Part shown: positions 33,613-34,660 of the stretch, piece after piece | How the letters are laid out: each line of letters begins with the position of its first letter | Numbering within the stretch: the first letter of the stretch is position 1 | DNA from: a virus | Lineage: Duplodnaviria > Caudoviricetes | Length of the DNA stretch: 60,317 nt | IMG/VR virus record: IMGVR_UViG_3300024518_004211 | Span: 1-60,317 of that record | Direction: 5' to 3' (one strand) | Notes under the pieces: generated by a model | The model's input: the letters and a program-made list of their open reading frames with translations, nothing else | Told to the model about the DNA's origin: nothing | Databases searched by the model: none | Translations under genes and position numbers: made by a program

Positions 33613-33942
33613 TCATGGCTCATCCCCCAGAACAGGCGCGGCAACAGCACCGGCCTCCATCGCGGCCAGAATAGCCCCGCCGTTCCCACTCGTCAGTCCG
33701 CCCGATTTGCCGTCCCTGTACGCGATGCCGCCGACCTCAGCGCCGACGACGATCCCGAAAGCCGCGAACCACGTCGACCACAGGCCCAGGACCACGCCCA
33801 CATTGCCGGCCTGAGCGGGCGTCAGGAGCACGTAGGCGGACGCTGTGAGCAGGAAGGCGCCGAGGACTACCAGCACGGTCTTTCCGTAGGTGGCGCCTTG
33901 GACGAGGGTTGAGGGTGGGCGGGGGAGTGGTGGAAGACTCAT
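33613..33942 (-). CDS. Putative holin
   Basis: 109 aa with two or three hydrophobic segments (VLVVLGAFLLTASAYVLL; VGVVLGLWSTWFAAFGIVV), near the endolysin. Confidence 0.6.
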   Translation of the reverse strand: MSLPPLPRPPSTLVQGATYGKTVLVVLGAFLLTASAYVLLTPAQAGNVGVVLGLWSTWFAAFGIVVGAEVGGIAYRDGKSGGLTSGNGGAILAAMEAGAVAAPVLGDEP

Positions 33943-34617
33943 TGCAGGCCCTCAATGTGGCCGCGCAGGTAGTCCTTCACCCGGACGCGCTTTCCGGTGA
34001 CATGGTCAACCACCTGCCCGCGCTGGATGGCGATGGTGCGCCGCTTGTCGCCACGCATCCCGGAACCGACTTGCTTGCGCCTCTTTCCGTCGCGAGCGGA
34101 TGACGCCCTCTGCTGCTTCGCCTCCATCAACCGGGCGCGGAGGATGCTGTAGGCGGTCTCCGTGTTCTGCGTCTGTGAGCGCTCCGACTCCACCCTGACG
34201 GTGATGCCTGTCGGGCGGTGGGTCAACTGGACGGCGGAGTCGGTGACGTTCTTGTGCTGCCCGCCCGCACCGGATCCTCGGCACGTCTTGCGGTCCACGT
34301 CCCGCTTGTTGATAGTCACCTCTGACCGCGTAGGCTCACGGAGTACGGCTACCGTCACGGTCGATGTGTGAACCCTGCCGCTTCGTTCGGTCGGCGGAAC
34401 GCGCTGCCACCTGTGGCCGCCAGCCTCGTTTGCGAACGCCTTTTCCGCACCCTTTCCGGTGGCGCGGAACACGATGATCCCGGGCCGCTGTTCTGCAATC
34501 TCGACGCTAAAGCCGCCTCCTGGCCGCCATCTTCGCGTAGATCGCGAACTGGTCGCCCACAAGGAGCTTCGCGTCTGCGCCGCCCTCTGCTGCCCTGATC
34601 TCGATGATGATCGACAT
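33939..34617 (-). CDS. RF1-type peptide chain release factor lacking domain 1, made by +1 programmed frameshift (join 34617-34510, 34508-33939; ~225 aa)
   Basis: ORF1 MSIIIEIRAAEGGADAKLLVGDQFAIYAKMAARRRL* matches RF1 [23 protein letters not shown]; the +1 frame has EAGGHRWQRVPPTERSGRVHTSTVTVAVL, GSGAGGQHKNVTDSAVQLTHRPTGI, ERSQTQN, GSGMRGDKRRT; AGGAGG RBS at 34622-34627. Confidence 0.92.
34506..34521 (-). promoter_or_regulatory. prfB-like +1 frameshift cassette AGGAGG-CGG-CTT-TAG-C
   Basis: Internal Shine-Dalgarno 3 nt before CTT, in-frame stop, 3' C; same geometry as E. coli prfB AGGGGG-TAT-CTT-TGA-C. Confidence 0.9.
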
Positions 34618-34660
34618 GGTGCCTCCTGCTGGGAGGATAACACCGATTCGACCAAACAGA

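Follow-up and report, generated by a model that had tools for sequence, protein, structure and literature searches.

A phage release factor gene of the RF1 type with a predicted prfB-like +1 frameshift site at an amber codon

The window analysed here is the entire IMG/VR virus record IMGVR_UViG_3300024518_004211, a stretch of 60,317 bp that is estimated to be complete. It carries on its minus strand a gene for a putative class I release factor of the RF1 type, which is divided between two open reading frames (ORFs), ORF1 and ORF2. The two frames meet at a CTT-TAG-C site that resembles the programmed frameshift site of prfB, the bacterial RF2 gene. We favour, with some reserve, the reading that this factor, which lacks domain 1 of RF1, would be made only by programmed +1 frameshifting, with an output inverse to RF1-type activity.

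All elements of the gene lie on the minus strand. A ribosome-binding site read from the sequence (AGGAGG, 34622 to 34627) is located 4 nt 5' of the ORF1 start. ORF1 (34507 to 34617), defined by the sequence and the RF1 alignment, runs in the zero frame from an ATG (34617-34615) through 36 sense codons to TAG, and its product is MSIIIEIRAAEGGADAKLLVGDQFAIYAKMAARRRL. These 36 residues form the beginning of RF1 domain 2, aligning from position 105 of the RF1 profile and from residue 112 of Escherichia coli RF1. An internal Shine-Dalgarno-like AGGAGG (34516 to 34521) has its 3' end 3 nt before CTT and 6 nt before TAG. The shift site CTT_TAG_C (34506 to 34512) follows, reading CTT (34512-34510), TAG (34509-34507) and C (34506) after the codon CGG (34515-34513). 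ORF2 (33939 to 34508), supported by sequence, profile and structure, occupies the +1 frame with 189 codons from AGC (Ser37) to TGA (33941-33939). It supplies the rest of the codon-recognition domain, with PPT (34397-34389) and HTS, as well as the catalytic domain with its GGQ (34265-34257).

When CTTT is read as one step, the two frames join into a 225-aa product (P0001) without further stops. Past the junction this product continues as SVEIAEQ..., followed by QRVPPTERSGRVHTS and GAGGQHKN. The in-frame TAG is codon 37, and the +1 frame beyond it adds 189 residues homologous to RF1. Four features of a prfB-type cassette are present, namely an early in-frame stop, CTT before the stop, the Shine-Dalgarno-like spacing and a C after the stop. 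GGAGGNNNCTTTRR occurs once on both strands of the 60317-base window, where 0.03 occurrences are expected; shuffling produced one or more matches in 3 of 100 trials. A downstream stimulatory RNA structure in the window could not be distinguished from shuffles (z -1.48). The first-pass annotation, made from the sequence alone, had described the ribosome-binding site, the ATG at 34617, the junction AGGAGG-CGG-CTT-TAG-C and the +1 continuation, and this anatomy holds to the base. The prfB layout that it recognized, with the Shine-Dalgarno-like element 3 nt before CTT, the stop and the C, is likewise present.

The joined product matches RF1 along its length. With the NCBIfam RF1 model it forms a single stretch, residues 2-222 aligning on positions 105-332 of 347 (E 1.1e-62, 212 bits). 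The same product scores 129.5 bits with the RF2 model, below the curated full-length cut-off, and 85.4 bits with the PrfH model TIGR03072, whose cut-off is 166.65; this ranking of the three models agrees with the RF1-like product proposed in the first-pass annotation. Both RF1 equivalog cut-offs are missed (NF001859, 212.2 versus 400 bits; TIGR00019, 208.9 versus 423.25). Pfam recognizes the second half of the PCRF domain (101-194 of 194) and the RF-1 domain. Residues 112-336 of E. coli RF1 align over the junction without a break, 'AARRRLSVEI' lying on 'AEARRWRVEI', and QRVPPTERSGRVHTS and GAGGQHKN match their counterparts in E. coli RF1, namely the PxT loop, the flanking Gln, the His-Thr and the GGQ. 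Sequence scores against PDB entries are ~158 bits for RF1, 80-93 for RF2 and 45-54 for PrfH. In addition, an AlphaFold model of the product, built on 67 sequences (pLDDT 82.5), finds ribosome-bound RF1 chains as its best Foldseek matches (8akn_W, TM 0.90, rmsd 2.5 Å), the TM for PrfH being 0.63. Because the profile, structure-sequence and fold matches all favour RF1, the product is predicted to be an RF1-type class I factor with an intact decoding loop and GGQ and without domain 1, neither an RF1 equivalog nor a PrfH.

Relatives were collected by DNA-level scans of viral, metagenome and genome collections, independently of gene calls. The peptide patterns were taken from ORF2 and at most the best 80 loci were kept per scan, so that the collection may be biased. 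The IMG/VR scans gave 3 and then 39 loci, the metagenomes the best 80 of 504 relatives, and the species-representative genomes the best 80 of 103. Among these last, 17 were near full-length; the other 63 (L061-L123), which matched only at about residues 55-200 and mostly at 100-170 in the GGQ domain, stand outside the counts. The best 80 of 142 further relatives came from a second IMG/VR scan, whose broader patterns were derived from an alignment with uninterrupted homologues among its sequences. Loci were classed according to whether, and how, the reading frame differs between the GGHRWQ motif and a conserved N-terminal motif.

In the first set both motifs were present at 124 of 140 loci, representing 106 unique sequences. 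Of these, 85 require a +1 shift at CTT-stop (58 TGA, 24 TAG, 3 TAA), 15 have an in-frame internal stop (14 TGA, 1 TAG) and 6 are continuous, two of them resembling ordinary cellular factors. The 16 loci without the motif pair were read by eye and comprise 3 continuous genes (2 with the same sequence), 2 identical in-frame-stop genes, 2 with a +1 shift, 2 with an unrecognizable N-terminus, 5 cut by contig ends and 2 that are RF2-like and of a different kind. The second IMG/VR scan gave 73 unique sequences, 62 with a +1 shift (47 TGA, 11 TAG, 4 TAA), 9 with an in-frame stop and 2 continuous. When the sets are merged, 126 of 154 unique sequences need the +1 shift, always at CTT-stop (91 TGA, 29 TAG, 6 TAA), 20 have an in-frame stop and 8 are continuous. 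The site lies at the window's codon in 78 of the 85 frameshifted sequences of the first set. The cassette is thus conserved in homologues, a check that the first-pass annotation had proposed. Moreover, residues 2-36 of ORF1 are homologous to RF1 and conserved among the relatives, with E6, R8, E11, G12, G13 and others invariant.

The codons that build the cassette are not those used elsewhere in the same genes, as judged from the 85 unique frameshifted sequences of the first set. The codon before the stop is CTT in all 85, compared with 16% of 1,266 Leu codons elsewhere. The codons forming the Shine-Dalgarno-like run are CGG in 67 and AGG in 58 sequences, compared with 16% and 11% of 2,105 Arg codons. 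The run measures at least 5 nt in 67 sequences and 4 nt in 10, and is missing in 8; a C follows the stop in 74. The consensus of the cassette is CGG AGG GGT CTT TGA C, and the GGAGG run is absent from members that continue in frame. The shift site therefore shows what look like codon-choice signatures of selection for CTT and for the upstream GGAGG. Because the cassette is conserved with this signature in many independent sequences, we are highly confident that it represents a real, required and conserved programmed +1 frameshift.

We infer in vivo frameshifting and its efficiency, the codon specificity of the product and any feedback from the features described above. In the proposed mechanism, ribosomes would initiate at the ATG at 34617 and translate 36 codons, at which point the P site would hold peptidyl-tRNA-Leu paired with CUU and the A site would contain UAG-C. 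The anti-Shine-Dalgarno sequence of 16S rRNA would base-pair with the internal AGGAGG located 3 nt upstream. Fast recognition of UAG by RF1 would release a 36-residue peptide, whereas slow recognition would give the tRNA time to slip from CUU to UUU; the ribosome would then decode AGC and go on to complete the 225-residue factor. Low RF1-type activity at UAG would thus raise the output, and high activity would lower it. Because the product itself is predicted to read UAG, the loop could close as negative feedback in the window phage. A meaningful RF1-responsive feedback in this phage is a prospect that we take seriously while leaning slightly against it.

Several observations weigh against the proposed regulation or against parts of the evidence for it. 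The first concerns the identity of the stop. The cassette stop is TGA in 91 of the 126 frameshifted relatives, which have the same kind of recognition loop. In the merged +1 set the PPT loop accompanies 54 TGA, 18 TAG and 3 TAA cassettes, and a PPN loop accompanies 22 TGA, 3 TAG and no TAA cassettes. A FastTree tree of 103 products requires at least 17 switches of stop type among the frameshifted members, and well-supported sister pairs differ only in the stop (L138 TGA and L142 TAG; L188 TAG and L198 TGA). Furthermore, the cassette stop showed no association with GC or with the stop codons that end flanking ORFs (chi-square p 0.88, from crude ORF calls).

The second concerns the forms that dispense with the shift. 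The protein collection holds many single-ORF homologues of 220-230 aa with 59-69% identity (61-69% for P0003-P0009). Of the best 120 protein hits, 83 span at least 92% of the query, and the other 37 consist of ORF2 only. A tree of 217 products (126 frameshifted, 72 continuous, 19 with an in-frame stop) shows the modes interspersed, with 44 mode changes by parsimony, at least 9 of them forced by well-supported branches. Since uninterrupted homologues are scattered among the frameshifted ones, the gate appears dispensable in some lineages. In addition, the Shine-Dalgarno-like run overlaps conserved Arg-Arg-Gly codons, and part of its conservation is for this reason attributable to coding. Finally, the sequencing runs containing the window stretch are seawater metagenomes, one of which (X2) leaves the junction uncovered. 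In another (X1), a separately built contig spans 33600-35300 at a word depth of 68.5 with 0 differences; this assembly support is not independent, because X1 may be the source sample.

The stop identities bear most directly on self-regulation. In the window, the TAG gate occurs together with a PPT/HTS loop, which is consistent with a gate read by its own factor, given the predicted specificity. To this extent the match between sensor codon and product specificity noted in the first-pass annotation fits the window phage; it does not extend to the family, where the stop varies and changes repeatedly. If PPT confers UAA/UAG specificity as in RF1, the gate of most members would read host RF2, and direct self-regulation would not be the conserved logic of the family, given that most gates are TGA. 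The TAG gate of the window would read RF1-type activity, its own product included. Self-feedback is therefore possible in the window phage without being the conserved principle of the family. The amber cassette is one of three common forms and of no special design, and what seems to be conserved family-wide is gating by a stop codon of any kind. A role in tying factor synthesis to the termination capacity of the cell (RF2 for TGA, RF1 for TAG) is more likely to be general than strict self-regulation.

The recognition loops themselves vary among the relatives. At the position of window His83 (GRVHTS), about half of the frameshifted relatives have Gln before Thr-Ser (67 Q versus 57 H). PPN replaces PPT in many relatives, and decoding properties may differ inside the family. 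In nine relatives (L016, L021, L228, L234, L042, L269, L275, L125 and L204) the PxT loop is lost (for example GGHRWQEKSGGRMQTS) yet the gate is kept; such gated factors may no longer read stops in the usual way.

The uninterrupted forms are best understood together with their position on the tree. For much of the family the gate seems to be ancestral, with repeated losses, since a one-base deletion is the simplest route of loss. The first-pass annotation had named continuous homologues lacking the cassette as a finding that would count against the frameshift; such homologues do exist, interspersed on the tree, but the +1 shift is needed in 126 of 154 unique sequences. Recoded forms predominate in the viral collection. 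The true proportions of the forms are uncertain, because the ranking of the protein search favours full-length, uninterrupted ORFs and no more than the best 80 loci of each DNA scan were retained.

A second mode of gating is apparent in relatives with an in-frame stop. A well-supported clade of seven (L008, L015, L139, L144, L158, L165 and L187) has an in-frame stop at the codon where others are frameshifted (codon 31, counted after the EIR motif). Six members use TGA, and L015 uses TAG. The stop is preceded by TAT in five members and by CTA in L008, and is followed by CTG in all six TGA members, with the frame unshifted beyond. This clade looks like a readthrough-gated version of the same gene. 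L125/L126 and L204 are also in-frame-stop forms. For an alternative code in the in-frame-stop relatives, a crude comparison of ORF coverage on 1-3 kb flanks did not discriminate. Several low-GC relatives (L004/L027/L264, L037, L038, L043, L041 and L049) have in-frame TGA codons in the gene, and in L037, L038 and L043 a TGA stands at the Trp of E. coli RF1 (RRW), which would fit phages or hosts reading TGA as an amino acid.

In another subfamily the CTT-TGA-C cassette is located about 10 codons further downstream (codon 41 in L050, L054, L055 and L057; codon 46 in L052). Its members include isolate genomes, those of Thiobacillus denitrificans DSM 12475, Achromobacter anxifer LMG 26857 and Novimethylophilus kurashikiensis La2-4. 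L004 and L032, kin of this subfamily, have an in-frame TGA at its site. This pattern suggests a second, separate origin of the gate.

Among the alternatives, the one that best withstands the evidence is a fixed-ratio attenuator, in which the CTT-stop cassette, with any slowly decoded stop, would set a low constant fraction of full-length factor and no meaningful feedback would operate. It would account for the use of all three stops with the same recognition motif and for the at least 17 changes of stop type. Given the ranking of the stop codons by strength, the order TGA > TAG > TAA, together with the 3' C in 74 of 85 sequences, is what selection for weak termination and high shifting would be expected to produce. 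Limiting the dose would have value, because overproduction of release factors is harmful in Bacillus subtilis, strongly for RF2 and modestly for RF1, as reported in the available text of PMC12421855. A weaker ribosome-binding site, however, would limit the dose without a detour of 36 codons. Moreover, the in-frame clade described above (7 unique sequences; 6 TGA, 1 TAG; TAT before the stop in 5 of 7) retains a stop at the same codon, which suggests that selection acts on the stop itself. Since termination and slippage compete, some dependence on release factors is also hard to avoid, as established for prfB. We consider a pure attenuator unlikely, although it is the most serious of the alternatives.

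A different question is whether the product serves as a rescue factor for damaged or stalled ribosomes, similar to PrfH or ArfB and gated by its internal stop; this would concern function and leave the recoding untouched. Domain 1 is absent, as in PrfH, and some members (L016, L021, L042, L269 and L275) lack the PxT loop yet have the cassette. The window protein, in contrast, retains the QRVPPT...HTS of RF1, falls well short of the PrfH cut-off (85.4 against 166.65 bits) and is closer in fold to RF1 (TM 0.90) than to PrfH (0.63). No RtcB match was found in the 60-kb phage, and no neighbour family is conserved across the loci. A rescue function is, in our judgement, improbable.

Still less credit can be given to a gene that needs no frameshift, in which ORF2 would be translated from its own start (as the 243-aa ORF from the ATG at 34670, or as a 177-aa call) and ORF1 would be a separate small gene or no gene. 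Gene callers do yield such models, the 177-aa P0002 as well as P0052 and P0034. They leave the RF1 homology and conservation of ORF1 residues 2-36 and the unbroken profile alignment through the junction without a place, and the upstream part of the +1 frame is of low complexity and not conserved. Without residues 1-36, the codon-recognition domain is predicted to lose its first strand and helix.

A broken gene or assembly error, that is a one-base insertion in a formerly continuous factor gene, is scarcely credible: continuous homologues exist and only one run, possibly the source, covers the junction, but 126 unique sequences from separate assemblies, among them the three isolate genomes named above, need the same +1 shift, CTT is present in all 85 examined in detail, both frames are intact and conserved on either side of the junction, and the contig at depth 68.5 contains no variants. 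The X1 contig, which may come from the source sample, shows no single-base error of the kind that the first-pass annotation had raised against itself.

Returning to the frameshift-gated factor, we put forward tentatively, and with more doubt than confidence, a broader proposal. Many unrelated phages, on contigs of ~10 kb to >600 kb, would gate a domain-1-less RF1-type factor as a live gauge of host RF2/RF1 activity and use it to top up termination. The lock would usually be opened by a prfB-like +1 slip of independent origin and, in some clades, by readthrough, and the lock codon would have been switched freely among UGA, UAG and UAA. Such a gauge might respond to intense translation of late genes, to a change of genetic code driven by the phage or to a host defence directed at termination. 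On this view, the window would contain a self-limiting, amber-locked version.

The split of the gene affects how it has been annotated. The ORF list for genetic code table 11 gives a 57-aa ORF ending at 34507 and a 243-aa ORF (33939-34670) whose first ~60 residues are of low complexity; the first-pass annotation had called the N-terminus of the latter meaningless. The stored protein model of the window (P0002) is a 177-aa fragment (33939-34472) beginning at an internal GTG, and 48 residues of the factor are missing from it. ORF2-only calls of this kind are also represented in the protein collection by P0052 and P0034. Frameshifted relatives in public databases are likely to be mis-annotated in the same way.

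Immediately downstream on the minus strand lies an ORF of 109 aa with hydrophobic stretches (33613 to 33942), which has no Pfam or PHROG match. The TGA of the factor overlaps the ATG of this ORF (ATGA, 33939-33942), and the two are therefore probably translationally coupled. Expression of the 109-aa ORF may depend on ribosomes that have finished the frameshift.

The factor gene is located near the end of a long minus-strand block (32378-60219) that begins with the large terminase (57328-58806, minus strand). The assignment of the DNA to a phage in the first-pass annotation accords with the IMG/VR virus record and with this terminase. Ten flanking or structural proteins of the window were tested; PHROG matched only the large terminase and one family of unknown function (35317-36705, minus strand), and Pfam gave no match above cut-off, so that the genomic context offers no functional hint. 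Around the relatives, clustering of 1805 flank ORFs revealed no widely shared family besides the factor itself and antisense artefacts, and flanking ORFs of the isolate-genome copies (L050, L054) matched no Pfam family. The window has a GC content of ~65%, and its terminators are 54 TGA, 22 TAG and 3 TAA by a crude ORF call. No tRNA gene was found in the 60 kb and ordinary ORFs end mostly in TGA; the phage thus gives no sign of recoding. Among 50,697 deposited phage records there was no DNA match to the window. Protein matches in deposited phage genomes are below 60% identity and are mostly ordinary RF1/RF2 genes or unannotated records, and by these comparisons the window phage appears very distant from described phages.

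Among known systems, ordinary bacterial RF1 (prfA) shares with the window product the PCRF and RF-1 domains, the QRVPxT...HTS and GGQ motifs and the fold of ribosome-bound RF1. It differs in possessing the ~105 N-terminal residues (domain 1) that the window product lacks, the latter scoring 212 against a cut-off of 400. The available text of the PMC12421855 survey records no programmed frameshift in bacterial prfA, in line with the first-pass statement that host prfA is not normally frameshifted. Searches of the full-text literature outside subscription journals turned up no account of a release factor gene, either phage-borne or of the RF1 type, that is frameshifted. PrfH resembles the window product as a short class I factor paralogue without domain 1. 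PrfH does not recognize stop codons in the normal manner and has RtcB as its partner, whereas the window product keeps the PxT loop and falls below the PrfH cut-off, and the phage has no RtcB.

Phages with recoded stop codons (Lak, Agate, Jade) carry RF1 or RF2 genes that are thought to reshape late-infection termination, and the RF1 gene of Jade adjoins the lysis cassette, according to the available text of the preprint (bioRxiv 10.1101/2021.08.26.457843). The word 'frameshift' occurs 0 times in that text, and the window phage, for its part, is without signs of recoding. A closer viral parallel is the release factor gene of Mimivirus and Megavirus, which contains one frameshift and one readthrough site and is described, in the part of PMC3521657 available to us, as following a bacterial-like autoregulatory scheme. 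As described there, it also encodes a class I termination factor in a virus and requires recoding at internal stops for its synthesis. That factor is, however, of the eRF1 type found in eukaryotes and archaea, belongs to giant viruses of amoebae and needs two recoding events, whereas the phage family is of the bacterial RF1 type with one event per gene, mostly a +1 shift and in some members an in-frame stop.

The closest comparison is with prfB itself. Both cassettes lie early in the coding sequence of a class I factor and share the Shine-Dalgarno-like element with its distance of 3 nt to CUU, the CUU_U slip site, the in-frame stop and the C that follows it. In prfB, the 3' end of the Shine-Dalgarno sequence lies 6 nt before the stop, a spacing equal to that of the window, according to the available texts of PMC10732093 and PMC3711429. 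The window gene differs in being of the RF1 type, phage-borne and without domain 1. Its site is at codons 36-37 in the codon-recognition domain, at about residue 145 of E. coli RF1, where a Trp aligns to L36. Codon 26 of prfB presumably falls in domain 1, and the window product lacks the first ~105 RF1 profile positions, the region in which the prfB site would be expected. Codon 26 is the location of the prfB site given in the available text of PMC5009743, which also states that a UAG/RF1 counterpart of the prfB switch was unknown. Because the position in the protein differs, the window site would not be homologous to the prfB site, and the device most likely arose independently of prfB. The stop differs as well, being TAG in the window and variable in the phage family (91 TGA, 29 TAG, 6 TAA). 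In the survey data available from PMC12421855, TGA accounts for 98.6% of 8,164 prfB motifs and TAG for none, which its authors take as the mark of autoregulation.

The novelty lies in a known cis-acting device that occurs in another gene family and a different biological context, and whose lock codon varies. According to the available text of PMC10885494, every CUU-stop +1 site recorded in RECODE belongs to prfB. Frameshifting of this type, known essentially from prfB alone, now has a large second gene family, apparently of independent origin and with the site at a different position. It adds a viral rather than a cellular location, all three stops, and sister lineages with an in-frame stop or no gate, and it accounts for the current mis-calling of these genes as truncated ORFs. 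Phages may in this way use termination itself to control the synthesis of their own termination factor. Because some copies reside in cultivable bacteria, the mechanism is open to experiment, and together with prfB the family provides a natural series for asking what a prfB-type switch really senses.

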